Of a stretch of DNA of 32,000 nt, positions 5,721 to 30,993 are shown one piece after another; positions within the stretch are counted from its first letter, which is position 1; every line of letters starts with the position of its first letter. Source of the DNA: Bdellovibrionales bacterium. Lineage in GTDB: Bacteria; Bdellovibrionota; Bdellovibrionia; Bdellovibrionales; UBA1609. The DNA lies in contig OY843585.1 of the NCBI GenBank assembly GCA_963692945.1, forward strand, positions 1,050,001 to 1,082,000, in the 5' to 3' direction. Both the position numbers and the translations under genes were made by a program. Below the pieces are notes generated by a model that ran no database searches, was not told the origin of the DNA, and worked only from the letters and a program-made list of their open reading frames with translations.

Positions 5721-8453
5721 ATGAAATTCATTCTTATGTTGGTCATTTTATTGGGTTTAAACCCTTTCTTCAGTTTTTCGGCTGAAAACAATAATGTGGA
5801 AAGAATACAGGTTACAGGGTCTCGTATTAAACGAATTAATATTGAAGGACCTTCACCCTTATTGATTTTAGATAAAGAAGATTTAGAAAATTCAGGATAC
5901 AATTCTGTAGCTGATGTTTTAAGAGATACAAATATAGCTCCTTTCGGTGTAGCTCGTGAAAGCACAGGAGGTTCTATTGCTGGTGAAGCCTTTACAGGAG
6001 TTCATGGTGCAAGTGCTCTTATTTTAATCAATGGGCGAAGAGTTATAGAAGATCCTAATGCGGAAGCCGTTGATCTTCATCTTATTCCTATATATGCCGT
6101 TGAACGAATAGAAATCATTAAAGACGGTTCTTCAGCTATTTATGGCTCTAATGCTCTAGGTGGAGTTATTAACTTTATCATGAAAGAAAATTTTTCAGGA
6201 ACAGGATACTATGGCCGTATCTCCCCTACTCTTTATCCCTTTTATAAAGGGGGTCATCGTTTAGAGGGAGCCGTCGTTTGGGGAAACACCCATCCAAGAG
6301 GGTCTGTTACAGGTGCTTTACAATTTCGTTTGAATGATAGTATTTTTGCATCAGATAGAAAATGGTCTATAGAAAATATTAGCCCTACGAGCGTTCACCC
6401 TGCTATACATTTTGAAGATAGTAGGATTTCTATTTCAGATTCTTGTCCTGTAGAAAGTAGAAAAGAAACAGAATGTTCCTATAATTTTTCAGAATACATA
6501 CATACATTGCCTCAAATTGCTCAGTTTTCTGGATACATTCAAGGAGACTATAAGTGGAAAGGAATGAATCTTTACTCTCAAATTCTATCTTCTTATAAAA
6601 GAACTTCTTACCAATACCCTCCTCAACCAGGGGCTATTCCATTAGATTCAGGACATAAATTATCTACTCATACAGGTGTTAAAGGAAGACTCATTTATCG
6701 CTTTAAAGAATCGGGGTTTAGAATGTCATTAACTGATTATCTAACAATGGATACAGCTTTTGGAGCTAAAGGTTATCTGTCTTCAAATTGGGATTGGGAT
6801 GCAAATGTAAAAATATCTGGAACCTATAAAAAAGATAATTTCTCAGGACTTCTTGTTAAAGATACAATTATAAAATTAGTCAATGAAGGAATCTATGACC
6901 CTTATAATTCAAGCCAAAGAGATTTGAGTGAGGCTATGTACAAATCTATAGATCATAATTCTTCTGTCCTTTTATCAACGGACCTCATTTTTTCTGGAAA
7001 CATAGGAGCTGTTGATACAGCTTTTGGAGTTCAACAATTCTATAAAAATTATACAGAAGAAGCAGATCCTAAAGTTAAATCTGGTAATATTTTAGGAAAT
7101 GCAGGCTCGGATGGTTCTGGATCAAGAAAAATAAGTTCTTTCTTTGGAGAAGCGACTTACTCTCCTTTTGATAGTTTTGAGATTCAATTAGCAGGTCGTG
7201 GAGATTATTATTTTGATTTAAATAGACTCGCTGAAAGCGAAAAGAATAAATCCAATGGAGTTGATGAAAGCGAAGATAATAAATCCAATGAACTCGATGA
7301 AAGCGAAGATAATAAATCCATAGGAGTTTTTACTTTTAATCCAAAAGTGGCTTTTAGATATCAACCCAGAGATTCTTTTTTATTGAGAGGTAGTATAGGA
7401 ACTTCCTTTACTGCACCTTCTTTACATAGCCTTTATGGATCAAAATCAGAAGGATTTAGTAGGGGTCTTATTGATTACATTGCTTGTTTCAATCAATTGA
7501 AAGCATCTGGAGATATTTCTGATTTACAAGAAACTCTTGTTAAAGATTTTCTTGCAGATCAACAAGAAACTATTGAGAAAAAGGATTTACCACAAGAATC
7601 AAAAACAAAATTAGAAAAACTAGTAAATGTATTTTCAAAAAGAGAATACTGTAACGACAGGCAATATCATGTTGAAATTAAAAATAATAAAAACCTAAAA
7701 GAAATAAAAGGTCTTTCTGCTTCTTTAGGCTCTGTTATTCAAATCAATGAAGATATAAGCTTCACCTTAGATGGATGGTATATCAAAACAAATGGATCTC
7801 CTGGAAATGGTATTAGTGAGGACACCATAAAAGTAGAGTTAAAAAAAGGGAAAGATTTTGTTGCTAAACAAGGAATCATTATCAATAGAGATTCAACAAA
7901 TCCATACAAACCTATATTAAATTCTAGAAGTAAGGAAGGCTTACCAGGTATAGATGCAAAAACTATAAATATGTCAAGTTCTGAAATTTCTGGCTTAGAT
8001 TTCGCTTTGTTGGCCTTCTTACCTGATATTCATTATCGTGGTGGAAATTTTTATGTAAAAGAAGAAGGGAGTGTTATTTTTTATTCTAAATCTGAAGGTT
8101 TTCCAGGAAGAGGTTTTAAAGATAACATAGGTAAATTTGGCTTGCCTCGTTGGAGAACGGCTAGCACATTAGGTTGGAAAAATAAAAACCATAACATGGC
8201 TTTCAAACTAAATAGTTTTGCTTCAGTGACAAAACTAAATAATCAATTAGAATCTTTACCTATGCATCATCGTTTGGATATATCTTATCAATGGGCTATA
8301 GACTCTAAAACCATTGTAAATGCTGGTTGGATAAACATTTTATTCAATGACCCTCCTATAGATAATACGATTAAAAACGATCCACAAATTGATGAAGATC
8401 TTTATGAAATCCGTGGCCCTCATTTTTATGTGGGATTCAAAAAACTAATATAG
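5721..8453 (+). CDS. TonB-dependent outer-membrane receptor
   Basis: 910 aa. It has a signal peptide and a TonB-box-like ERIQVTGSRIKR. Plug-domain motifs are present (LILINGRRV, ERIEIIKDGSSAIYGSNALGGVINF), followed by a long beta-barrel region. There is a good RBS (AAAGGGGA) 8 nt upstream. Confidence 0.9.
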   Translation: MKFILMLVILLGLNPFFSFSAENNNVERIQVTGSRIKRINIEGPSPLLILDKEDLENSGYNSVADVLRDTNIAPFGVARESTGGSIAGEAFTGVHGASALILINGRRVIEDPNAEAVDLHLIPIYAVERIEIIKDGSSAIYGSNALGGVINFIMKENFSGTGYYGRISPTLYPFYKGGHRLEGAVVWGNTHPRGSVTGALQFRLNDSIFASDRKWSIENISPTSVHPAIHFEDSRISISDSCPVESRKETECSYNFSEYIHTLPQIAQFSGYIQGDYKWKGMNLYSQILSSYKRTSYQYPPQPGAIPLDSGHKLSTHTGVKGRLIYRFKESGFRMSLTDYLTMDTAFGAKGYLSSNWDWDANVKISGTYKKDNFSGLLVKDTIIKLVNEGIYDPYNSSQRDLSEAMYKSIDHNSSVLLSTDLIFSGNIGAVDTAFGVQQFYKNYTEEADPKVKSGNILGNAGSDGSGSRKISSFFGEATYSPFDSFEIQLAGRGDYYFDLNRLAESEKNKSNGVDESEDNKSNELDESEDNKSIGVFTFNPKVAFRYQPRDSFLLRGSIGTSFTAPSLHSLYGSKSEGFSRGLIDYIACFNQLKASGDISDLQETLVKDFLADQQETIEKKDLPQESKTKLEKLVNVFSKREYCNDRQYHVEIKNNKNLKEIKGLSASLGSVIQINEDISFTLDGWYIKTNGSPGNGISEDTIKVELKKGKDFVAKQGIIINRDSTNPYKPILNSRSKEGLPGIDAKTINMSSSEISGLDFALLAFLPDIHYRGGNFYVKEEGSVIFYSKSEGFPGRGFKDNIGKFGLPRWRTASTLGWKNKNHNMAFKLNSFASVTKLNNQLESLPMHHRLDISYQWAIDSKTIVNAGWINILFNDPPIDNTIKNDPQIDEDLYEIRGPHFYVGFKKLI
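7233..7328 (+). repeat. 33-bp in-frame tandem repeat, about 2.9 copies, inside the receptor gene
   Basis: The copies are GAAAGCGAAAAGAATAAATCCAATGGAGTTGAT, GAAAGCGAAGATAATAAATCCAATGAACTCGAT and GAAAGCGAAGATAATAAATCCATAGGAGTT. They encode ESEKNKSNGVD / ESEDNKSNELD / ESEDNKSIGV. Confidence 0.9.
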
Positions 8454-10557: not shown

Positions 10558-11066
10558 TGGGTTTTTTTGAAGAAATAAATATTTTTATGGAAAAAGGAGG
10601 AACCACCTTATGGTTTATTCTCCTTACTCTTTTAGCTTTTTGGATTCTTGTTTTAGAAAGATATTATTTTTTTAAATACATTTATCCTACAAAAGAAAAA
10701 GAAAAACAAAACTCATGGTCTCAAGTTACAAATAAAGACTCTTGGTTTTCACAACAACTTCGTCAAAAATTTATTTCTGAAATCTCAAGAGAATTGAATC
10801 AGTTTTTAACAGCCATTAAAACCCTTATAGTTCTCTTTCCTCTTTTAGGACTCTTAGGCACTATAACAGGTATGATTGCTATTTTTGATATCATGTCCTT
10901 CACTGGAACTGGAAATGCAAGGCTTATGGCGAGTGGGATTTCTATGGCTGTTATTCCCACAATGGCAGGAATGGTGGCAGCTATCTCTGGGCTTTATTTT
11001 AGCAATGATTTAGAAAAAAGATCTAAAAAGAAAATAGAGTATTTTACCAAAACATTAAAGTTTTAA
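10554..11066 (+). CDS. exbB: ExbB/TolQ-family proton-channel protein
   Basis: 170 aa with three predicted TM segments and the MotA/ExbB motif FPLLGLLGTITGMIAIF ... GISMAVIPTMAGM. Confidence 0.85.
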   Translation: MMGFFEEINIFMEKGGTTLWFILLTLLAFWILVLERYYFFKYIYPTKEKEKQNSWSQVTNKDSWFSQQLRQKFISEISRELNQFLTAIKTLIVLFPLLGLLGTITGMIAIFDIMSFTGTGNARLMASGISMAVIPTMAGMVAAISGLYFSNDLEKRSKKKIEYFTKTLKF

Positions 11067-11067
11067 T

Positions 11068-11487
11068 ATGAGAAAAAGGTTTAAAAATTATCAAGAAAGC
11101 GAAGCAACTATAGAGTTAATGCCTCTATTAGATGTTGTTTTTATCCTTCTTATCTTTTTTATTGTGACCACTTCCTTTGTAAAAGAGTCTGGTATTGATG
11201 TTTTAAAACCAACAGCAAAAACAGCAGAAAAAAAAGAAAGAGCTAGTATTTTTATAGCCATCAAAGACAATGGGGAAATATGGATTCAAAAACGAAAAGT
11301 AGAGCTTGGTTCTGTTCGTGCAAACATTGAAAAACTTCACGCTGAAAGCCCTGAAGGTAGTGTTGTTATCCAAGCCGATAAAAGATCTCAAACAGGTGTT
11401 TTAATACAAGTTATGGATCAAATTCGTGCTGCTCATGTTGAAAACATTTCTGTAGCCGCTCAACCTGATGGCTTAAACTCCTTTTAA
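11068..11487 (+). CDS. exbD: ExbD/TolR-family protein
   Basis: 139 aa. It has an N-terminal TM with the typical MPLLDVVFILLIFFIVT segment (conserved Asp) and a periplasmic ExbD fold region. Confidence 0.9.
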   Translation: MRKRFKNYQESEATIELMPLLDVVFILLIFFIVTTSFVKESGIDVLKPTAKTAEKKERASIFIAIKDNGEIWIQKRKVELGSVRANIEKLHAESPEGSVVIQADKRSQTGVLIQVMDQIRAAHVENISVAAQPDGLNSF

Positions 11488-13652: not shown

Positions 13653-14402
13653 ATGTCTATTAAAACAAAATTAAGTGTTAACATTAATAAAATTGCTACC
13701 TTGAGGAATGCAAGAGGAAAGAACATCCCAGACCTTTTAAAAATGACTAAAATAATTATTGAAGCCGGTGCTGAAGGAATCACTATTCACCCACGTCCTG
13801 ATGAAAGACATATACGCTATGCTGATGTGATTCCATTAAAAAATCTTATTAAAAAATATAAAGATGTAGAGTTTAATATAGAGGGCTATCCTTCCAATAA
13901 ATTTTTAAAATTGATTGAGGATGTTTTACCTCATCAATGCACTTTAGTCCCCGATCCTCCTGATGTTTTAACTTCCAACGCTGGTTGGAAATTTGTAGAT
14001 AACAAAACTTTATTAAAACAAACTGTTGAAAATTTTAAAAAATTAAAGATTCGTTCCAGCTTGTTTTTAGATCCTTTTTCAATGACAGATACAGAGTGGG
14101 AGGCTTTAAAAGCCATTTCACCTGACCGTGTAGAACTCTACACAGAATCTTATGCTGAAAATTGGAACACTAAAAGAGAGAAAGAAGTGCTTTTTGAATA
14201 TAAAAAGACAGCTTCAAAAGCCTCTCAACTTAAAATTGGAATCAATGCAGGACATGATCTCAATCAAAAAAATTTAGCAAAATTTTTAGAAACTATTCCA
14301 GAAGTTAAAGAGATTTCTATCGGACAAGCTCTCATTGCTGAATCTCTAGAAGAAAGCTTAGCTTCTGTTGTTGGAAAATACCTATCTATTACAAAACTCT
14401 AG
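13653..14402 (+). CDS. pdxJ: pyridoxine 5'-phosphate synthase
   Basis: LSVNINKIATLRNARG ... GITIHPRPDERHI ... NIEGYP ... are PdxJ hallmarks. I start it at the internal ATG at 13653 (MSIKTKL), 1 nt after the TPR stop. The track start at 13608 would overlap the TPR gene by 44 nt. Confidence 0.88.
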   Translation: MSIKTKLSVNINKIATLRNARGKNIPDLLKMTKIIIEAGAEGITIHPRPDERHIRYADVIPLKNLIKKYKDVEFNIEGYPSNKFLKLIEDVLPHQCTLVPDPPDVLTSNAGWKFVDNKTLLKQTVENFKKLKIRSSLFLDPFSMTDTEWEALKAISPDRVELYTESYAENWNTKREKEVLFEYKKTASKASQLKIGINAGHDLNQKNLAKFLETIPEVKEISIGQALIAESLEESLASVVGKYLSITKL

Positions 14403-14580
14403 TTCAGTTACTTAGATATTTTCTTACTCTTATTTTAACGAGCTTTTCATCACAGGAGGGACATTCTTCAAATCTCGTGAAAATAAAAGATTTAAACATA
14501 GAGAAAAACTCTGTTCTTTTAAAGAGTCTCAAAATTGAGACACATTATAAATGAGTAAAAAACCTAACATAAAGAGTTTT
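14392..14580. mobile_element. MITE-like intergenic repeat mosaic, copy A
   Basis: It begins with CAAAACTCTAGTTCA (14392-14406), which contains the pdxJ stop codon. It includes the hairpin at 14427-14489, a degenerate copy of the 24-nt unit (CATAGAGAAAAACTCTGTTCTTTT, 14498-14521), and a 6-bp hairpin GTCTCA-AAAT-TGAGAC (14526-14541). Its right end AAAGAGTTTT (14571-14580) is only a degenerate match to the inverted terminus. Modules are shared with 19166-19447. Confidence 0.4.
14427..14489. repeat. imperfect 16-bp inverted repeat (14 of 16 pair) enclosing a 31-nt core
   Basis: The arms are CTCTTATTTTAACGAG (14427-14442) and CTCGTGAAAATAAAAG (14474-14489). The loop CTTTTCATCACAGGAGGGACATTCTTCAAAT (14443-14473) matches the loop at 19200-19230 at 24 of 31 positions. 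Confidence 0.85.
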
Positions 14581-14608
14581 AAAAAAATAGTAAAAATAAC
14601 TCAAGTTT

Positions 14609-16417
14609 TTGAAGTCATTTCCGATGATAATCAAAGATATGCCTTTTAAAAATACTTTTTTCTTTCTTCTCTTAATTTTCTCTATTTTAAGTTTTTCTGA
14701 AAATCTTGTGATGTTCCCTGAAAGCTATAATTTTATAAAAGAAAAAGCCTATTCAAAAAAAGATAAAGAATATCTTTTTGAAATGGGGAAAATACATTAC
14801 TACGGAGTGAAACATCAAGGAACAGGTGAACTTTTTATAAAACCTAATATGGCGAAATCCTTAGAAGATTTTAAAGAATCCTATGACTTGGGTTACAAAA
14901 AAGAAACAGCTCCATTTATAGCTCATATGTATTTTTATGGGACTGATGATATAAAACAAGATAAGAAAAAGGGTCTTAAGTATTATGAAGATGTCTTAAA
15001 ATATGGAAGTTCAAAAGATAAAGACGAAGCCATTAGCATTATAAATGAAAATCAAGATGAAATAAATCGTATTCAGCCAGATTTTTTTAGAACAACAGAG
15101 GGTTTACCAAAGGAACAAGATTCTTTTAATCCTACTACAACACCTAGACCTCCTACACCTCCATTTGATTCTATTATAACGACACCAATACCTGAAAGAG
15201 TGCCACAAAGCGTTCCACCAAAAAATCTATTCAGTCCTCCTCCTAGTCACATAACTAAAGAACAATTTATTGAATTTAAAAATACATTTGAACCTTACTT
15301 AGACATTCAAATAGCAAAGGCAAAAAAATTCAAAGCCTCTCTTGCTGGAGTTCCTCCAAATAATACTACAATAGCTAATTTGCAATTATGGCTCAGTCGA
15401 GTCGAGACAATTAAACGGCAATTAAATGTACCTAATCGCCTAGAAGAATACAATCGCTTAAAAGAAGAATTATTAAATTTACTCAAAACATCTCCTTTTG
15501 CAAGTATATTGAGAGGAGTTCAGGTCAATTCTTCCATAGGATCAGGAAATGGTTTTTTGTATTCTTCAAAATACGTTATTACCAATTATCATGTAATAAG
15601 TGATAAAAGTGTTAAAAAACAGGCTCAAACAGGTCAAATTATGAATATCGAATTGATAAATAACAACAAAAGAAATGTTAAGCTTATCTATTATGATTGT
15701 GACAATGATTTAGCTCTTCTTGAAGTTCAAGGAAATCCTATAACAAATGAAGATTTATTAGAACCTTCAGAGAGAACATATCTTCAGCAACTTGCAAAGT
15801 CAGGCCTTGTAACAAAGAAAGATATAAATACAATGCTTCAATCTCAGTTAGATAAAACCATTCCTCTAACCTCCAATGCCCAAAAAGGAAGTGTTGTGGA
15901 GTATTTAAAAAGTGATTTAAGTGTTATTGAATCAGGAAAAGTTATCTTCTTAAATAATCACTATGGTATTTTAAAGAATACTAATATTGTTAAGGGATAT
16001 AGTGGTGGCGGAATATTTTATCAAAATGAGCTGGCTTGCATAACTCAAGGAGGTATAACAATACAAAATTATAGGAGAATCTTATGTATTTCCTCCTCTC
16101 AAATTGAGTCCTTTATAAACAAAAGAAACCAACAACCTGAAAAATTTTGTAAGTGTAAGAATTTTCTTCTCATTTTCAAAGCGATTGAAGATTATGCAAA
16201 TAGTAAACCTCTAAGTTATGTAGTCTCAGCTAGAGATTTTCTATTACAAGCTAGTAAAGAATCTATTAAACTTATGATTAAGGCTTTTTCAGGAAAACGT
16301 ATATCTAAGACAGTAGAACGAAGGATAGAGTATACAATTAAAGTGTTAAATAGAAAAGCAAAGAAAAAAGACCCTAATCATCAAGAACCTGCAGCTAATG
16401 TATGCAGAGATTTTTAA
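14609..16417 (+). CDS. secreted Sel1-like-repeat / trypsin-like (S1 family) serine protease fusion
   Basis: 602 aa. The track start is TTG at 14609. ATG alternatives at 14624 and 14639 give MPFKNTFFFLLLIFSILSFS, a signal peptide. The N-terminal part has Sel1/TPR-like repeats (GKIHYYGVKHQG ... AHMYFYGTDDIKQDKKKGLKYYE). A Pro-rich linker follows (TTTPRPPTPPFDSIITTPIPERVPQSVPPKNLFSPPPS). The candidate catalytic triad is ITNYHVI (His), DNDLALLEV (Asp) and KGYSGGGIF (Ser). There is also a roughly 100-aa C-terminal extension. Confidence 0.7.
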   Translation: MKSFPMIIKDMPFKNTFFFLLLIFSILSFSENLVMFPESYNFIKEKAYSKKDKEYLFEMGKIHYYGVKHQGTGELFIKPNMAKSLEDFKESYDLGYKKETAPFIAHMYFYGTDDIKQDKKKGLKYYEDVLKYGSSKDKDEAISIINENQDEINRIQPDFFRTTEGLPKEQDSFNPTTTPRPPTPPFDSIITTPIPERVPQSVPPKNLFSPPPSHITKEQFIEFKNTFEPYLDIQIAKAKKFKASLAGVPPNNTTIANLQLWLSRVETIKRQLNVPNRLEEYNRLKEELLNLLKTSPFASILRGVQVNSSIGSGNGFLYSSKYVITNYHVISDKSVKKQAQTGQIMNIELINNNKRNVKLIYYDCDNDLALLEVQGNPITNEDLLEPSERTYLQQLAKSGLVTKKDINTMLQSQLDKTIPLTSNAQKGSVVEYLKSDLSVIESGKVIFLNNHYGILKNTNIVKGYSGGGIFYQNELACITQGGITIQNYRRILCISSSQIESFINKRNQQPEKFCKCKNFLLIFKAIEDYANSKPLSYVVSARDFLLQASKESIKLMIKAFSGKRISKTVERRIEYTIKVLNRKAKKKDPNHQEPAANVCRDF

Positions 16418-16440
16418 AACAAAGGATATGAATTATGAAA

Positions 16441-16495
16441 AAAAAATTTACTTCTTTTACAAAAATTGATAGGTTAAAAATATTATGAAATACAT
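16441..16495 (+). repeat. 55-bp leader duplication, copy 1 (partner at 17053-17107, 54 of 55 identical)
   Basis: The sequence AAAAAATTTACTTCTTTTACAAAA(A/T)TTGATAGGTTAAAAATATTATGAAATACAT covers 44 bp upstream plus the first 11 nt of the ankyrin lipoprotein gene. Confidence 0.95.
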
Positions 16496-17027
16496 GTTAT
16501 TTATTTTTATATTTACTGGAAGCTTATTTCAATTTTCTTGTAAAGAAGATGAAGAGATAAATGCTAATAGTCCTTTTAAAACATTAGAAGAAGCTCAAAA
16601 ACACCTTGAAACCAATAGAAAGTATGAAATGGTTAAAGGTTGCAAGGTGATAGCACAAGGACCCGCCAATGTTATGCCATTCATTAACTTTGATCCAATA
16701 AATAAGCTGTTTGAAGATAATGATGATTACTTAACAATACCTGATGATCTTGTGAGGTCTATCGTATTTGAAGATGTAGTAGCTGTAAAATGTCTTCTCG
16801 GCACAAGCTATGATCCTAATACGAGAAGTATTTCAATATTATCATCAGCAATACCACATTCAGCTCTTCATTGGGCTGTTTCTAAAAATAACCCTGAAAT
16901 CGTGAAACTTCTGGCAGAAGCAGGAGCAGATGTGAATGAGAGACATGAAGATGGAATTAATTATTTGCTGTTTTTTGCTGAGGGAGAGGTAAAAGAAATC
17001 CTTAAAGCTCATGGAGCTATAGAATAG
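16485..17027 (+). CDS. ankyrin-repeat lipoprotein
   Basis: 180 aa with a lipobox (SLFQFSC). The C-terminal half has ANK consensus (SALHWAVSKNNPEIVKLLAEAGADVNERHEDGINYLLF ... ILKAHGA), giving about 2-3 repeats. Confidence 0.75.
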   Translation: MKYMLFIFIFTGSLFQFSCKEDEEINANSPFKTLEEAQKHLETNRKYEMVKGCKVIAQGPANVMPFINFDPINKLFEDNDDYLTIPDDLVRSIVFEDVVAVKCLLGTSYDPNTRSISILSSAIPHSALHWAVSKNNPEIVKLLAEAGADVNERHEDGINYLLFFAEGEVKEILKAHGAIE

Positions 17028-17052
17028 AATCTAAATATTTTTTTATAAATTC

Positions 17053-17107
17053 AAAAAATTTACTTCTTTTACAAAATTTGATAGGTTAAAAATATTATGA
17101 AATACAT
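17053..17107 (+). repeat. 55-bp leader duplication, copy 2
   Basis: See 16441-16495. The same upstream region and first codons (MKY) are present here. Confidence 0.95.
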
Positions 17108-17198
17108 TTTATTTGTTGCTTTACTTTTTCAACTCTCTTGTAGAGAAAATAAGAAAACAACTGATGATAATCTTTTAAAAGAACTAGAGTTTTGTTAA
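17097..17198 (+). pseudogene. 33-codon lipoprotein-leader ORF, probably a truncated paralogue of the ankyrin lipoprotein gene
   Basis: My translation is MKYILFVALLFQLSCRENKKTTDDNLLKELEFC*. The leader is similar to MKYMLFIFIFTGSLFQFSCKEDEE of the upstream gene. The ORF ends inside the motif AACTAGAGTTTTG and overlaps the stop of the convergent nuclease gene by 4 nt. It could instead be a genuine mini-lipoprotein. Confidence 0.35.
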
Positions 17199-18091
17199 CT
17201 TGCTTTAGGTAATTTTTTCTCTAATTTTAAAATATTTTTATTTATAGATCTATAGAGCAAAGCAATATTTTTCTTGAAAAATCTCTGTTGAGCAGGATAA
17301 GTTTCTGAATCATAAATATCTTTAAATTCTTTACATATACCAATTCGTTCTTTATCCCAAATTTCAAATCCTTTTAGAAAGCCATTTCTTACATCTTTTT
17401 TTAAAAGATTTAGTAATTTCATATCCTGTTTTTTAGTTTTATCTCTAACATTCCACCATATTCCTATACGAGGACGATCCGTAGCTCTAAATGCTGTGAA
17501 CCAAGAAAACTCTTTAGAGGGTGTAATATGTATGCAATTGTTTGCATTATGTTTTATATAAAAATTATTTCCAAATTCTTTTATTAATTTATTAAAAAAA
17601 AATTTATTTTTAGTTTTTTTACTAGACCAATTTGATGGATGACAAGTGACTTTAAATCTAGGGAGAGTATTAGATTGACCTATTTGAAATTTCTCTACCT
17701 GTACACCAAAAAACTCTATTCCTGACCCATGTTGATTAAGCCAATCTATAACTTGTCTATGTTCCAGTGTTATTTCATTAAATAACCATACAGCTGTTCG
17801 AGCTGATGATTTGATGGCATAAGTTAAAACTTGCCCTAAGTGTTTATGATCTGTTTTTTCCAATTGATTTTCAATGATGACTTCACTCCCATTACTTTGA
17901 TCAATAGCGAATAAATCTACTTTATAAGAACCTATTGGTTTTTCTGTTTGAATATCTCCTAAATTTTTACCGATAGACTTTCCTAAATAATTTAGATTTT
18001 TTGGTTTTGATAACCATTTGGAAAAATCAGTTTCCTTTTCCCATTCTTTTCTTAAAGAAATCTCTTTTATTTTACCATATTTTTTAGACAT
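17195..18091 (-). CDS. PD-(D/E)xK nuclease-fold protein with a DUF4268-like C-terminal region
   Basis: 298 aa. The N-terminal half carries the motif string E-x-D-F-x-x-WL ... VDLFAID ... VIIENQLEKTDHKHLGQVLTYA ... VWL ... EH ... DWLN ... FFGV. I recognise this string from the restriction-endonuclease-like family usually annotated as DUF4268-containing. There is no signal peptide. Confidence 0.55.
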   Translation of the reverse strand: MSKKYGKIKEISLRKEWEKETDFSKWLSKPKNLNYLGKSIGKNLGDIQTEKPIGSYKVDLFAIDQSNGSEVIIENQLEKTDHKHLGQVLTYAIKSSARTAVWLFNEITLEHRQVIDWLNQHGSGIEFFGVQVEKFQIGQSNTLPRFKVTCHPSNWSSKKTKNKFFFNKLIKEFGNNFYIKHNANNCIHITPSKEFSWFTAFRATDRPRIGIWWNVRDKTKKQDMKLLNLLKKDVRNGFLKGFEIWDKERIGICKEFKDIYDSETYPAQQRFFKKNIALLYRSINKNILKLEKKLPKAS

Positions 18092-18187
18092 ATTTTATCC
18101 TTTTCTTATGAACTCTATCGGTTTTGTTTTGAAAAAGATTAACAAAATCTTTATTGCAAAAAATAAAAATTCTTCTAGAATGAAAGA

Positions 18188-18913
18188 ATGTCTGTTGAAA
18201 TTATTCAAATACCCGTATGGGAAGATAACTATATCTATCTTCTTCATGAAAATATTTCACATAAAACAGCTGTGATTGATCCAGCAGAAGCCTTTGCTGT
18301 GAATGATTACTTAAAAAAGAAAAATTGGAATCTTGATTTTATCTTCAATACCCATCACCATCCTGACCATATAGGAGGTAACCTTCAACTTAAAAAGAAA
18401 TGGGGATGTAAAATTTATGGCTATAAAGAAGATGCTCATAGAATATCAGGTATTGACAAGCATCTTGAAGACGAAGAAGTTTTTTCTTTTGGTTCTGTTG
18501 ATTTTAAAGTGCTATTTGTTCCAGGACACACCTTAGGTCATATTGCCTATTGGTCTGAAACAGAAAATATTCTATTTTGCGGAGATTGTCTTTTTGCTAT
18601 GGGCTGTGGAAGACTTTTTGAAGGAACACCAAAGCAAATGTTTTCCAGCTTATCTAAAATCAAACAACTGCATCCAAAAACCCTTATTTATTGTGCCCAT
18701 GAATACAGCTTAAAAAACGCTCAATTTGCTCTCACAATCAACCCAGAAAATCCCTCCCTGAAAGAAAGAGCAAAAAAAATAGGACAATTCAGAAAGAAAG
18801 ATAAGCCCACAGTCCCATTCACTCTTCAAGAAGAACTTCTGACAAACCCCTTTTTAAGAGCCAAAACGACTGAAGAGTTTGCCAAACTTCGCTCTCTTAG
18901 AGATGAATTTTAA
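18188..18913 (+). CDS. gloB: hydroxyacylglutathione hydrolase (glyoxalase II)
   Basis: 241 aa. It has the metallo-beta-lactamase motif THHHPDHIGG, later His/Asp ligands (VPGHTLGH, CGDCLF, AHEY), and a C-terminal NPFLR segment typical of GloB. Confidence 0.88.
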   Translation: MSVEIIQIPVWEDNYIYLLHENISHKTAVIDPAEAFAVNDYLKKKNWNLDFIFNTHHHPDHIGGNLQLKKKWGCKIYGYKEDAHRISGIDKHLEDEEVFSFGSVDFKVLFVPGHTLGHIAYWSETENILFCGDCLFAMGCGRLFEGTPKQMFSSLSKIKQLHPKTLIYCAHEYSLKNAQFALTINPENPSLKERAKKIGQFRKKDKPTVPFTLQEELLTNPFLRAKTTEEFAKLRSLRDEF

Positions 18914-18967
18914 AAAAATCCATTTTTTTATAGACCTGAATACACTTTTTCGTATAAAAAAGCTCTT

Positions 18968-19147
18968 ATGGCAAAGAAAAAAGGTATAAAAATTATCACT
19001 TTAGAATGCACAGAGGCTCGTAAAGAAGGCAAACCACCTTCTCGTTATACAACTACAAAAAACAGCCAAGAACATCCAGAAAGACTAAAAAAGAAAAAAT
19101 ACAATCCTTTTTTAAATCGTCACACTTTACATCAAGAAATAAAATAA
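18968..19147 (+). CDS. rpmG: 50S ribosomal protein L33
   Basis: This gene is not in the ORF track because it is only 59 aa. My translation is [59 protein letters not shown]. The segments I-x-L-x-C-T ... YTT-x-KN ... ERL-x-x-KKY-x-P ... H ... H-x-E-x-K are the L33 signature. Confidence 0.88.
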
Positions 19148-19179
19148 ATTTACAAAACTCTTTTTCAAAACTCTAGTGT

Positions 19180-19250
19180 TATCCCTCCTTGTTTTCTGAC
19201 CTTTCATCGTAAAAGGGACACTCTTCAAGTTCAGAAAACAAGGAGGGATA
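19180..19250. repeat. perfect 20-bp inverted repeat with a 31-nt spacer
   Basis: TATCCCTCCTTGTTTTCTGA (19180-19199) and TCAGAAAACAAGGAGGGATA (19231-19250) are exact reverse complements. The spacer is CCTTTCATCGTAAAAGGGACACTCTTCAAGT. Confidence 0.95.
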
Positions 19251-19256
19251 TTCATA

Positions 19257-19333
19257 GAGAAAACCTACTGGTTTTCGCATGAGGAAAACTACTGGTTTTC
19301 GCAGGAGGAAAACTACGGTTTTTCGCATGAGGA
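19257..19333. repeat. 24-bp tandem repeat, 3.2 copies, each unit containing its own hairpin
   Basis: The units are GAGAAAACCTACTGGTTTTCGCAT, GAGGAAAACTACTGGTTTTCGCAG and GAGGAAAACTACGGTTTTTCGCAT, followed by a partial GAGGA. The unit-internal stem is GAAAACC/GGTTTTC around TACT. An identical solo copy of unit 1 lies at 19393-19416. Confidence 0.95.
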
Positions 19334-19539
19334 TCTTTGTTTTTCAAATCTCGTTAAAATAAGAATTACTTAACAGGCTTATATTTGAACTAGAGAAAAC
19401 CTACTGGTTTTCGCATATAAGTCTTTGATGTTTGAACTAGAGTTTTGGAAATATTCTTAGAGAAAAAAAGATGATTTAATCTATTAAAGATTTTCTATAT
19501 TTCTAGACAACTTAAATATTAAATTTTAATATAAAATCT

Positions 19540-20364
19540 ATGACTTATTTTATAAACTCTCTCAAATGGGAATATTTAAAACACTCTCAATCTATCAAAA
19601 TATTTTTAATAAAAAATATAACCTACAAATTTAATTTTTTTCTTATGATGATTATTCCTGTCTCTGTTTTCTTTTTTATAAAATACAATTTATGGGTTTC
19701 TATCTATGAAATCAATTCCGTAGAAATTATAAAAGGTTATACTTTATCAAAAATGATTAAATATCAATTTGGCATTTTCCTCCTTGATCTATTTGTTCGT
19801 TCTCATTTTTTTAGTCAAAATCTTTCAACAGATATTCGTTTAGGAAAAATCTCTTCCTTTATCCTCTACCCTTTTCATTTTATAAATTATCAACTCTCTC
19901 AATTTATTGCTAATAAATTTTTACAACTCCTTATAGGATCAACAGCTATTCTTACTGCTTTATTATTTAAAGTTATAGAAATTGATAGTTTTTCTGTATT
20001 TATTTATTTCTTACTTTTTGTAATAATAACAAGTATCTTTTGGTTTTTCATTCAAACTATTATAGGTCTTTTTGCCTTTTGGATAGATGAAACTTGGAGT
20101 TTAAATGTTTCCTTCCGATTTATAACTGCTTTTTTATCTGGAGCTTTTATTCCTTTAGATCTTTATCCTGAGCTCTTAAAAAATATATTGATATGGACTC
20201 CTTTTCCCTATTTAGTTTATTTTCCTGTAAAAATACTAATGGGAGATGAAGTCCCTATTCTTTTTTGTGTCTCTATTCTCAGTGTGTGGACTTTGATTTT
20301 AATATTTATAGCTCTATGGGCTTGGAAGAAAGGTTTAAAACTCTATACAGGGGCAGGCATTTAA
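19540..20364 (+). CDS. ABC-2 family (DUF990-like) transporter permease
   Basis: 274 aa, highly hydrophobic, with about 6 predicted TM segments. A paralogous permease and an ABC ATPase follow it. Confidence 0.7.
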   Translation: MTYFINSLKWEYLKHSQSIKIFLIKNITYKFNFFLMMIIPVSVFFFIKYNLWVSIYEINSVEIIKGYTLSKMIKYQFGIFLLDLFVRSHFFSQNLSTDIRLGKISSFILYPFHFINYQLSQFIANKFLQLLIGSTAILTALLFKVIEIDSFSVFIYFLLFVIITSIFWFFIQTIIGLFAFWIDETWSLNVSFRFITAFLSGAFIPLDLYPELLKNILIWTPFPYLVYFPVKILMGDEVPILFCVSILSVWTLILIFIALWAWKKGLKLYTGAGI

Positions 20365-22197: not shown

Positions 22198-22250
22198 AAC
22201 TTTTGTATTGTTCATTTGAAAACAATAGAGTGGTGTAAAAAATTAGGGAA

Positions 22251-22326
22251 AATAGATAAAAAAAAAGCCCTTGGTTGCCGTCCCCAACCCCGAGAGGTTA
22301 AGTAGGCTTCCTTGGACTATCTATTA
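22251..22326. other. isolated GC-rich structured island; possible convergent terminator or small RNA
   Basis: AATAGATA (22251-22258) and TATCTATT (22319-22326) are inverted repeats. They enclose an A8 run plus GCCCTTGGTTGCCGTCCCCAACCCCGAGAGGTTAAGTAGGCTTCCTTGGAC. This is the only GC-rich patch in any intergenic region of the window. Internal pairings include GGTTG/CAACC and GTCC/GGAC. On the minus strand it is followed by a U-run. Confidence 0.25.
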
Positions 22327-22515
22327 TATTAACACAATCTTGAAAAAAGTCAAATAATTTTTTAAAAAAAGGACAATTAGCTTAAAAGCTTTATTTTATA
22401 GGCTTTCTAGAAGATTAAAAAAAGAATTTTTATAAAAGCGTGATTTATTTAATAATTTAAAATGACTTTTTAGGCTTTAATTTTGGTGTGTACTAAAGAA
22501 CTCTAGGTAATCAAT

Positions 22516-22875
22516 CTAGTTATTTTTAATATGTACTGGTTTAAATTTATCACTACATTCAAAAAATGAATTCAAAGCATCTCTATTTTCTTTAGTTTTT
22601 GGAAATTCTACAGACATAATTTGAGTTTTTTCCCAAAAAAGGACAGTTAGTTGTTCATAAACCTGGACTTCAATTATGTCATTATTTTCATATATAGTAC
22701 TAATTTGTTTTCCAGGTATCTGCCAAAGACCTTCCTTTCCCCATCTAAAAACATAGGAAGATATAGTTTTTGGTTTGTGTAGCATAAGATTACAACCTTT
22801 TTTGTAATAAATCCCCTGTTCTGCAAAAGAAATTACAGGTTGAGTAAGAAAAAGTAAAAGCACTAGGTATTTCAT
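22516..22875 (-). CDS. small secreted protein of unknown function
   Basis: 119 aa with a signal peptide (MKYLVLLLFLTQPVISFAEQ). I recognised no family. Confidence 0.45.
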   Translation of the reverse strand: MKYLVLLLFLTQPVISFAEQGIYYKKGCNLMLHKPKTISSYVFRWGKEGLWQIPGKQISTIYENNDIIEVQVYEQLTVLFWEKTQIMSVEFPKTKENRDALNSFFECSDKFKPVHIKNN

Positions 22876-22926
22876 AATTTTTTAATTTTTAGTATTTTTT
22901 TTCAATATAGTCAAATATATTCTTTT

Positions 22927-22990
22927 AAAAGTAGTATTAAACTCATAAAAAGTCCTTTAAAAATAGTACTAAACTCATAAAAGACCTTTA
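22927..22990. repeat. adjacent imperfect direct repeats of about 32 bp, upstream of the 119-aa gene
   Basis: AAAAGTAGTATTAAACTCATAAAAAGTCCTTTA (22927-22959) is followed at once by AAAATAGTACTAAACTCATAAAAGACCTTTA (22960-22990). Confidence 0.85.
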
Positions 22991-23005
22991 TTTATAGAGA
23001 TTTCA

Positions 23006-29460: not shown

Positions 29461-30993
29461 TTAAGATTCAGGTTCAGAAACAGAAGTAGTAGTAGAATCT
29501 CTTTTTGCAACAGATAGGTTATCTTCTAATACCTGTTTTAGACATTCTTGATTTTCTGAAGAACTTTGACTTTCTTTAAAAAATCCACATGTTTCAATTT
29601 GAGATTCATTCAAACTAAAAAACAATTGAATCCCTTCAGAACGTTCAAATGTCTTAGAAGAGTCATTAGCCCCTTTAACAATATTCAATCCTAGTTTTTT
29701 GAGAAGAGATTCAGAGGGAACAATATTGAGAGGCAATCTTATATCATATCTTCGTGTATAATCTGGATACCATTGATTTAAAAGTGGAGACTCTAAAATA
29801 TAATTCATAAAATCTAAAAACTCAATAAAAGAATAATCTAATTCTGATTGTAAGTTAACAGAGCCAAAAAAGTTTTTTTCTAGTTCTGCAGACTCTGATA
29901 GTGATGCCATAATTCCTTTTTTTCTATCTTTAAACTTTTCTCCTAATCTATCAGATAATTTATAAAGATTACTTTTCTTACTCTCAGATAAAAAAGAAGT
30001 TTCTTTAGATATAATATTGTATTCTTTAAAACCATCGTTTGAAAGATCAAGAAAATAAAATAAGGCTTCTTGATAATCCTTTTGATTTAAAATACTTTTT
30101 TTAAGATCCTTCTTGTTTTGAGATTCATTAAAAACTTTATCTGCATCTTTATTGGACCAGTTAGAGTTTTGGACCATCTCTTGACCCTCTCCCTCATTCT
30201 CTTCCGCTTTCAACATCTCTTGACCCTCTCCCTCATTCTCTTCCGCTTTCAACATCTCTTCATATCTGACTGATAGAGAACCCGTACTATAAAATATAAA
30301 ACCATAAGGGCTTATAGATATATTTCTAGCACCTAAAAGCATATATCTAGCACAACCGTCACCACAAAAACCTAATATCTGTAAATCTACTTTTTTCTCT
30401 TTAAAATATTCACCTAAAGCCATAGCTACTTCTACATCAATTCCACTAAAAATATTAAGACCAACTTCTTTAATATTATTTTTTTCTAAAGCTTTATCAA
30501 GTGCTTTTATCACTTGAGCTGGGTTCTCTTCAGACTTAGAAATCTCTAAAGTCGTATAGTCTTTAGACCCATTTTTTAACATAAACTGTATAGATTCACT
30601 TTGGTTATAGAGTAGGACGGTAGCCAGTTTTTCAGGCAAGTTTTCCAACTGGTTAAAAATATAATTTTCTAAAGATTTTATATAGTTGGTAGGCATTGAA
30701 TACATTATAGTGAAAATAATTTGAGGATTTAAAGTTTGAAGAGATATATCTCTTATAAACTGATCAGACATAGGTGTATCGTTTTTAAACCATGAAGATT
30801 TTAGTAAGGCCTTATCAACTAGATCTTCAACCATTTGATTGGTTTCCTCAAAACTCATTTGCTTTGCATCTTTTATAACTTGCTCGCTAGGATTTTGTTT
30901 GGTTTTTTTGTAGGATTCTGGTTCAGAAAAAGCCATTCCAGAAATGAAGATAGTGGTTAAAAGAACAACACGAATGATAAAATTAAAAATCAC
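29461..30993 (-). CDS. secreted protein of unknown function carrying an internal tandem duplication
   Basis: 510 aa with a signal peptide (VVLLTTIFISGMAFSEP). I recognised no confident family. See the findings for a speculative ClpP/S49-like core. Confidence 0.6.
   Translation of the reverse strand: MIFNFIIRVVLLTTIFISGMAFSEPESYKKTKQNPSEQVIKDAKQMSFEETNQMVEDLVDKALLKSSWFKNDTPMSDQFIRDISLQTLNPQIIFTIMYSMPTNYIKSLENYIFNQLENLPEKLATVLLYNQSESIQFMLKNGSKDYTTLEISKSEENPAQVIKALDKALEKNNIKEVGLNIFSGIDVEVAMALGEYFKEKKVDLQILGFCGDGCARYMLLGARNISISPYGFIFYSTGSLSVRYEEMLKAEENEGEGQEMLKAEENEGEGQEMVQNSNWSNKDADKVFNESQNKKDLKKSILNQKDYQEALFYFLDLSNDGFKEYNIISKETSFLSESKKSNLYKLSDRLGEKFKDRKKGIMASLSESAELEKNFFGSVNLQSELDYSFIEFLDFMNYILESPLLNQWYPDYTRRYDIRLPLNIVPSESLLKKLGLNIVKGANDSSKTFERSEGIQLFFSLNESQIETCGFFKESQSSSENQECLKQVLEDNLSVAKRDSTTTSVSEPES
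30175..30252. repeat. perfect 39-bp tandem duplication inside the 510-aa gene
   Basis: CATCTCTTGACCCTCTCCCTCATTCTCTTCCGCTTTCAA occurs at 30175-30213 and again at 30214-30252, followed by a partial third start CATCTCTT. It encodes EMLKAEENEGEGQ twice. Confidence 0.97.

Follow-up and report, generated by a model that had tools for sequence, protein, structure and literature searches.

What kind of sequence fills the spacer between rpmG and a three-gene ABC-2 transporter operon in an AT-rich Bdellovibrionales genome, and is it there to serve the cell? On contig OY843585.1 (assembly GCA_963692945.1), an earlier note had described a non-coding block at positions 19166–19447 of a 32-kb stretch—hereafter the window, that is, the whole of the DNA analysed (30.5% GC; all copy counts are counts within it)—and had left three explanations standing: a transposable element of the miniature inverted-repeat type (MITE), possibly nested; a structured small RNA (sRNA) acting as a CsrB/RsmZ-like protein sponge; and an iteron-like array of protein-binding sites. 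We conclude that the block is probably a mosaic, composed of a small, lineage-private family of MITE-like palindromic elements together with a 24-nt module amplified by slippage. It is thus best read as an ordinary type of bacterial genome parasite rather than as a new RNA regulator.

Anatomy of the block downstream of rpmG

Pfam matches supported the gene labels around the block, namely gloB (18188–18913), rpmG (18968–19147) and the three-gene ABC-2 transporter operon that starts at 19540. The spacer between rpmG and this operon measures 392 nt, and the block takes up 282–320 nt of it, with a GC content of 36%. As the earlier note had it, the block is non-coding: searches of 5.8 billion and 1.84 billion proteins found nothing homologous to its minus-strand open reading frames (ORFs; 49 and 42 aa).

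The principal landmarks were where they had been placed. The left terminal inverted repeat, CAAAACTCTAGT (12 nt), lies on the plus strand at 19166–19177, and its exact reverse complement—the same sequence on the minus strand—at 19436–19447, where CAAAACTCTAGTTC runs across 19434–19447; pairing of the block ends extends to 16 nt with a single mismatch (15/16; 19162–19177 with 19436–19451). Inside the left end, a perfect 20-bp hairpin spans 19180–19250 (arms 19180–19199 and 19231–19250, 31-nt loop) and is lengthened by an outer CTCTA/TAGAG stem. It is followed on the plus strand by a tandem array of a 24-nt hairpin unit (19257–19333, starting at 19257 or 19259; consensus GAAAACTACTGGTTTTCGCATGAG), which we count as 3.1 copies, and by a solo unit at 19393–19416 that is the same as unit 1. 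The unit holds the 18-nt palindrome GAAAACC-TACT-GGTTTTC (GAAAACCTACTGGTTTTC). The perfect 7-bp GAAAACC/GGTTTTC stem had been ascribed to every unit but is found only in unit 1 and the solo unit, units 2 and 3 being variants with 6-bp or imperfect stems. The identity of the solo unit, in turn, is longer than had been noticed and covers 26 nt (19391–19416 = 19255–19280); a direct repeat of 12–15 nt, TTTGAACTAGAG, flanks this unit at 19381–19395 and 19428–19442.

The mosaic reaches beyond 19166 and 19447 on both sides. On the left, the plus-strand spacer directly after the rpmG stop (19148–19165) carries a partial additional copy of the end motif, ACAAAACTCT, and forms one half of a 13-nt tandem duplication (19149–19174); this stretch can be aligned to the native post-rpmG sequence of relatives, for example TAAAAATCTTTTTT in locus L007 (see below). 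Outside the right end, ATATTCTTAGAGAAAA (19451–19466, plus strand) is a 94% copy of 19248–19263, the 3′ end of the element copy that we call E2.

To assess how much of this exceeds chance, the 392-nt spacer was subjected to 200 dinucleotide shuffles. Their longest exact inverted repeat had a mean length of 10 nt and a maximum of 18, and consequently the 12-nt inverted repeat is not significant by itself; its significance comes from the exact recurrence of the 12–14-mer at two further sites, 14392(+) and 17194(−). By contrast, no shuffle had an inverted repeat as long as the 20-bp one or a direct repeat as long as the 26-nt one. Predicted folding energies were −103.6 kcal/mol for the plus strand (z = −8.2 against shuffles) and −92.1 kcal/mol for the minus strand (z = −8.55), so that the predicted self-pairing of the block is far above chance on both strands.

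The block ends recur as a small repeat family

Within the window there are exactly four occurrences of CAAAACTCTAGT, arranged as two inverted pairs, and a search for the 14-mer with up to two mismatches returned six occurrences against a chance expectation of 0.58. One pair, 19166(+)/19447(−), bounds the block; the other, 14392(+)/17194(−), bounds 2.8 kb containing a protease gene and an ankyrin gene. These ends mark four full or partial element copies, which we refer to as E1 to E4.

E1 (14392–14510, plus strand; nhmmer E=1.6e-30) lies at the 3′ end of pdxJ. The pdxJ stop codon, TAG, falls inside the end motif of E1, and the terminal codons differ from those of relatives: E1 has replaced the final pdxJ codons and supplies the last three together with the stop codon. 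Homologous to it is E2 (19166–19265, plus strand; nhmmer E=2.9e-25), a full copy laid out as end motif, 5′ arm, conserved loop (TTTCATC..GGGACACTCTTCAA), 3′ arm and CATAGAGAAAAC. E1 and E2 could be aligned over their full length by blastn, MAFFT and nhmmer, with the end, the loop (TTTCATC..GGGACAYTCTTCAA) and the closing CATAGAGAAAA conserved and the hairpin arms more diverged. Between their hairpins, nine base pairs had changed but were kept and twelve were broken, numbers that come from two sequences and are too few for a conclusion.

E3 (19340–19395; nhmmer E=0.044; terminating in GAACTAGAG) is a partial second copy within the block, with an arm of the E1 and not of the E2 type: its TTCAAATCTCGTTAAAATAA is 91% identical to E1 14464–14486, and an inverted match to E1 14397–14446 reaches 74.5%. 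E4 (17135–17194, minus strand), likewise partial, consists of the exact end motif CAAAACTCTAGTTC with 5′-arm and loop-like sequence; it adjoins the stop codon of a DUF4268 gene and overlaps, on the opposite strand, a 33-aa truncated lipoprotein ORF. The similarity between E2 and E4 extends past the end motif, at a score reached in 0 of 500 shuffles. The usual place of the 24-nt module is after C(A)TAGAG, and in E1 the module is degenerate. At three of the four ends, the gene that reads into the end (pdxJ, DUF4268 or rpmG) has its stop codon 0–18 nt away or overlapped by it.

Compared in this way, the block is best parsed as a mosaic of two palindromic-element copies, of different subtype and in opposite orientation, with a 24-nt module amplified between and within them. 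The basic element would be about 100–120 nt long and would comprise the end motif (TTW)CAAAACTCTAG, a long hairpin—imperfect or perfect—with the conserved loop, a closing C(A)TAGAG and a short hairpin module of the GAAAAC(C) type. In the spacer between rpmG and the ABC-2 operon, a full plus-strand copy (E2) would be opposed to a rearranged copy of the other subtype (E3), and because the two are oppositely oriented their outer ends would resemble terminal inverted repeats; those of the block may thus be the ends of two opposed copies. Slipped-strand or hairpin-mediated duplication would have amplified the 24-nt module into 3.1 tandem copies and one solo copy, and an enzyme whose gene lies in another part of the genome would have driven the transposition by which the elements themselves spread. 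For the cell, the block would serve no function of its own. Its probable place is in the 3′ untranslated region (UTR) of rpmG, where its stem-loops may incidentally hinder RNA decay or read-through, and it lies upstream of a conserved promoter-like region of the ABC-2 operon (~19480–19539).

Related loci lack the block

To place the block in its lineage, we compared six related loci found through GloB homologues of 67–82% identity (L006, L007, L010, L011, L013 and L014), which represent different species, not strains; the best named GloB homologues belong to metagenome-assembled genomes labelled Bdellovibrionales or Oligoflexia. The order of rpmG and the ABC-2 operon is kept in four of them (L006, L007, L010 and L014), and there the gap between the two is ~133 nt (L006), 62 nt (L007) or ~60–170 nt (L010, L014), against 392 nt here. 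What can be aligned to the relatives is the sequence just past the rpmG stop and ~60 nt before the start of the ABC-2 operon, with the block in between. The relatives' gap being far shorter and both flanks alignable, we take the block to be an insertion.

None of the six loci contains the block, so that the comparison of rpmG-downstream regions proposed in the earlier note resolves into presence versus absence between species. CAAAACTCTAGT was likewise not found in the syntenic loci of the relatives, and when E1 and E2 were combined into a profile for nhmmer, it matched nothing in ~120 kb of their sequence.

The second inverted pair lies in a second insertion. In L006, L007, L011 and L014, pdxJ adjoins or overlaps gloB, whereas 3.7 kb separates the two here. 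This inserted segment (14392–18126) consists of E1, a trypsin-like protease gene (14609–16417), an ankyrin-repeat lipoprotein gene (16485–17027), the truncated lipoprotein ORF and the DUF4268/NucS-like gene (298 aa; 17195–18091, minus strand). Near its right border, at 18110–18126, stands a degenerate end-like sequence, GAACTCTATCGGTTTTG, and the base composition of the inserted DNA is the same as that of its surroundings. The segment also holds a 59-nt direct duplication (16441–16499 and 17053–17111, 96.6% identical) that takes in the start of the ankyrin lipoprotein gene, namely its first codons and the sequence upstream of them; the second copy of the duplication heads the 33-aa ORF that runs into E4.

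Rearrangements at these two junctions are also seen elsewhere among the relatives: downstream of pdxJ, L010 carries two additional genes; downstream of rpmG, L011 carries a TPR/ankyrin island of 6.7 kb; and L013 shows an inversion. Relatives also carry mosaic or tandem repeats of their own at these junctions (L010 1021–1154; L011 11005–11079), and since these are unrelated to the repeats described here, private repeats appear to be a habit of the lineage. In L011, the repeat at 11005–11079 is a 23-nt tandem of 3.3 copies (AATAAACCTAACCTCTTTTAAGG) directly after the rpmG stop; in L006, AGATCTGGGAGAT occurs twice, 23 nt apart, at the same place (10960–11005). A conserved tandem array of 23–24 nt downstream of rpmG was considered and rejected: it is present in L011, weak in L006 and absent from L007, L010, L013 and L014, with units unrelated to one another. 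We treat these arrays as the behaviour of a hot spot and not as a conserved feature.

Two relatives hold further repeats. In L010, a mosaic family of its own stands both downstream of pdxJ and where the contig ends (1021–1620 and 12211–12331), made up of a 35-nt unit in 3.8 copies and a 43-nt unit in 2.8 copies with the common sequence TTTTTATC[CT]CTACT..AAGAT.AAAA, plus two modules of ~110 nt. In the 6.7-kb island of L011, inverted repeats of 101 and 65 nt, ~90% complementary (14082–14250 and 15132–15301), bracket an ankyrin-repeat gene and could represent an invertible or duplicated promoter region.

Recombination sites as an alternative

Insertions bracketed by inverted ends invite another explanation, in which the CAAAACTCTAG-ended hairpins are recombination scars or cassette boundaries, that is, attC-, pdif- or att-like sites on which a recombinase, structure- or site-specific, would act. 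Its action would give rise to variable islands at the 3′ ends of genes, and in the block a pair of these sites would stand empty or collapsed. A good part of the evidence above fits: both inverted pairs bracket DNA that is missing in relatives (the protease and ankyrin genes between 14392 and 17194, the unit array between 19166 and 19447), three of the four ends sit at or close to stop codons, relatives show hot spots of rearrangement at each of the two junctions, and the arms differ between copies yet still pair, the ends and the loop being conserved. The native site sequence of the relatives even resembles the end motif weakly, but this resemblance is short, AT-rich and perhaps due to chance. 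Moreover, the window encodes no integrase, Xer-like protein or other recombinase, and the end motif, inspected by eye, has neither the Xer 11-6-11 architecture nor attC RYYYAAC/GTTRRRY boxes. Nor are the flanks CAAAAC...GAAAAC complementary boxes, and copies stand in both orientations, whereas attC sites all point one way. Nor is the island of L011 bounded by comparable repeats. On balance we regard recombination sites as the main rival explanation, but an unlikely one.

In a bolder variant, a mobilisation system not yet described would work with the CAAAACTCTAG-ended modules as its termini: it would recognise folded hairpins with a conserved loop, insert at or into stop-codon regions, carry gene cargo between inverted pairs and give rise to the islands at both junctions in this ankyrin-rich lineage. 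The trypsin-like protease and the ankyrin-repeat lipoprotein may be its cargo and the block after rpmG an ‘empty’ pair. We give this variant a slim chance.

Searches for further copies and for a mobilising enzyme

The MITE-like reading makes demands of its own, and several results weigh against it. A pattern search for the 24-nt unit in GTDB representative genomes gave five single hits in unrelated, GC-richer taxa, about the estimated chance rate; the arm pattern had two hits in JGI metagenomes, with similarity limited to the pattern itself; scans of IMG/VR yielded none or chance hits only; and blastn against plasmids and phages found no match. The 32-kb window encodes no transposase or recombinase, and no direct repeat that could be a target-site duplication flanks 19166/19447 in any register. 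All four copies lie within 5 kb (14.4–19.5 kb) and none in the other 27 kb of the window, a distribution that could reflect local duplication or rearrangement instead of genome-wide transposition. Finally, conservation is uneven, with ends and loop kept and arms diverged yet still pairing, which hints, on the basis of two full copies only, at a structural constraint that a purely neutral parasite would not need.

The missing target-site duplication is not decisive given the nested, mosaic structure of the block; a possible TTA duplication flanks only the other pair, 14392/17194 (14389–14391 and 17195–17197). A mobilising enzyme had seemed close at hand in the 298-aa minus-strand neighbour of E4, but this candidate was rejected: the protein, whose N-terminus is that of a NucS-like nuclease, is a member of DUF4268, a widespread family, and is unconnected to the repeat.

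On the other side stand the features that the block shares with MITEs: terminal inverted repeats, small size, AT-rich and non-coding sequence, strong base pairing, and presence or absence at orthologous sites. As to dispersal, the window holds four ends, which amount to three or four partial copies between 14.4 and 19.5 kb. The suggestion of a possibly nested MITE is hence the one that we favour among those of the earlier note—on account of the block's absence from relatives, its recurring ends and its two-copy mosaic—while target-site duplication and transposase were not found. Because no duplication flanks the block, no transposase lies in the window and the visible copies are all within 5 kb, mobility is a property that we only infer.

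RNA-based and protein-binding explanations

Could the block instead act as RNA? It might serve as a 3′-UTR stabiliser or terminator substitute for rpmG, or as an sRNA whose GGA motifs titrate a CsrA-like protein. The fold predicted for both strands is indeed very stable, and an intrinsic terminator of rpmG, which L006 possesses, was not detectable here. The GGA richness pointed out in the earlier note is real in part: seven GGA fall within 19216–19333 where ~1.3 are expected (~5-fold), whereas the block as a whole, with eight in 323 nt, exceeds the window average only ~2-fold. The source of the seven is the repeated units plus one hairpin arm, and the enrichment is thus a by-product of these repeats. 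To judge by the sequence and the minimum-free-energy fold, neighbouring units could pair in an alternative way (GUUUUC with the next GAAAAC); GCAUGAG/GCAGGAG would then occupy loops of 7 nt, at whose edge GGA would stand.

As in CsrB and RsmZ, then, ~120 nt contain several GGA that either separate short hairpins or stand at their edges. Unlike those RNAs, the block lacks an Rfam Csr/Rsm match, a promoter and terminator of its own, many loop-exposed GGA and conservation in relatives. Rfam searches of the whole window at the gathering score gave no match for the block, and at E-values up to 10 the 23 hits in 18900–19600 were generic hairpins of the miRNA-precursor type far below threshold, with no Csr/Rsm family among them. 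A scan of 19148–19540 for promoter and terminator consensus found nothing above shuffled expectation; this is a weak test, as host promoter types may differ. Only ~3 GGA are possibly exposed in loops, a part of each lying in a stem, and absence from six relatives argues against a conserved regulator. The perfect 20-bp stem and the identical 26-nt duplicate likewise indicate recent DNA events, not a long-maintained RNA. With no positive support for a CsrB/RsmZ-like sponge, a structured RNA of either sort seems quite improbable to us.

The array of 18-nt palindromes, repeated every 24 nt and joined by the solo unit, might alternatively be a set of putative operators to which a dimeric DNA-binding protein attaches, or serve that protein as a site of the centromere or iteron type. 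Four near-identical 7-4-7 palindromes, a ~20-fold enrichment of GAAAAC/GTTTTC in the block (nine hexamers) and a position ~200 nt upstream of the ABC-2 operon would suit such a role. The neighbours, on the other hand, are rpmG, gloB and the ABC-2 operon, and no gene for a regulator, for replication or for partition is adjacent; sites of this sort are lacking in those relatives that share the operon; and a period of 24 nt is out of helical phase. In addition, the palindromes belong to a repeat family that is also found after pdxJ, where the unit is degenerate, and in GTDB representative genomes the unit pattern did not rise above chance. The iteron-like array proposed in the earlier note therefore gained no positive support, and we hold a protein-binding array to be very unlikely.

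Comparison with known repeat families

Among described repeats, the BOX element of Streptococcus pneumoniae—boxA, boxB(n), boxC—is a composite intergenic repeat and presumed MITE whose length varies by gain and loss of internal modules (PMC3049150). The block resembles it in having distinct, mutually pairing terminal modules, a variable tandem array of short self-folding modules and strong predicted structure: E2 and E3 flank the 3.1 tandem 24-nt units and the solo unit much as boxA and boxC flank boxB. This likeness is one of architecture only, not of homology, as the two differ in sequence and phylum, the unit here measures 24 nt and the terminal parts are long hairpins; BOX, moreover, exceeds 100 copies per genome, compared with the three or four clustered copies visible in the window. 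By analogy, the architecture of the block appears closest to that of pneumococcal BOX, and it would agree with published descriptions of MITEs in all but the target-site duplication (PMC3049150, PMC10969869).

Correia elements (CREE) of Neisseria and other MITEs such as ERIC, RUP and Nezha are small, AT-rich, non-coding and highly base-paired, with terminal inverted repeats; their presence varies between related genomes, and they are often co-transcribed with their neighbours (PMC3049150, PMC10969869). The block is like them in size, AT-richness, non-coding nature, base pairing and variable presence between related genomes. Its inverted repeats are shorter (12–17 nt, versus 26 bp in Correia), it has no visible target duplication and no known parental insertion sequence, and its tandem internal modules are atypical of Correia and ERIC. 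In Correia elements, the duplicated target is TA. Generation of target-site duplications is a general trait of MITEs (PMC3049150).

Rickettsia palindromic elements (RPEs) are palindromic repeats of ~100–150 nt in small AT-rich genomes and can insert into coding sequence (PMC10969869). E1, which overlaps the pdxJ 3′ end, and E4, which overlaps a small ORF, call them to mind; RPEs, however, lie in frame inside genes and are translated, while the elements here sit at gene ends and have no sequence relationship to them, and a host-associated lifestyle is only suggested here, by the ankyrin genes. With REP, BIME and REPIN sequences the elements share the extragenic position at gene 3′ ends, the mosaics and the inverted pairs that form long hairpins. 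REPs begin with a conserved GTAG-type tetranucleotide that a RAYT transposase recognises. They are short and G+C-rich, in contrast to the AT-rich hairpins described here, in which the loop and not the stem is conserved and which have no RAYT gene in the window. CRISPR arrays are a poor match, the 24-nt units following one another head to tail with no spacers.

If the MITE-like reading is true, the locus adds one more private small-repeat family. Its value would be of a practical sort: as a sign that the genome of this uncultured, AT-rich (30.5% GC) lineage, apparently a small one (the source contig is 1.56 Mb), has recently been plastic, as a warning to annotators against calling ORFs or sRNAs in such places, and, through the number of 24-nt units, as a strain-typing marker. 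It would gain greater weight if the inverted pairs mobilise effector-like genes (protease, ankyrin), or if a structure-specific enzyme directs the elements to stop-codon regions.

Other features of the window and its relatives

Away from the repeat family, a GC-rich hairpin of ~57 nt followed by a U-run (AGUCCAAGGAAGCC...GGCAACCAAGGGCUUUUUUUUU) lies at 22240–22345 on the minus strand, with TTGACT...TATAAT-like boxes before it. It had no Rfam, tRNA or tmRNA match. It is 70–76% conserved in L007, where it is syntenic, and in L010 (2977–3088), where it has another position and orientation, upstream of gloB; RNAalifold predicted 18 pairs, three of them with compensatory changes. We consider it a candidate small RNA or conserved terminator module. 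The surrounding gap between an ABC ATPase gene and a metallophosphatase gene (22198–23005) is 809 nt long, compared with 243–340 nt in L006 and L007, and contains a 119-aa ORF (22516–22875, minus strand) with no Pfam match as well as a 32-nt tandem repeat of 2.1 copies (22924–22990).

Tandem repeats were also seen within genes. A perfect 39-nt repeat of 2.2 copies (30175–30260) lies in a 510-aa ORF (29461–30993, minus strand) that has no Pfam match, and an in-frame 33-nt repeat of 2.9 copies (7232–7328) in a gene for a TonB-dependent receptor. In a more distant relative (L015), an intergenic pentanucleotide microsatellite, GCTCT, is repeated ~11 times at ~11020–11070.

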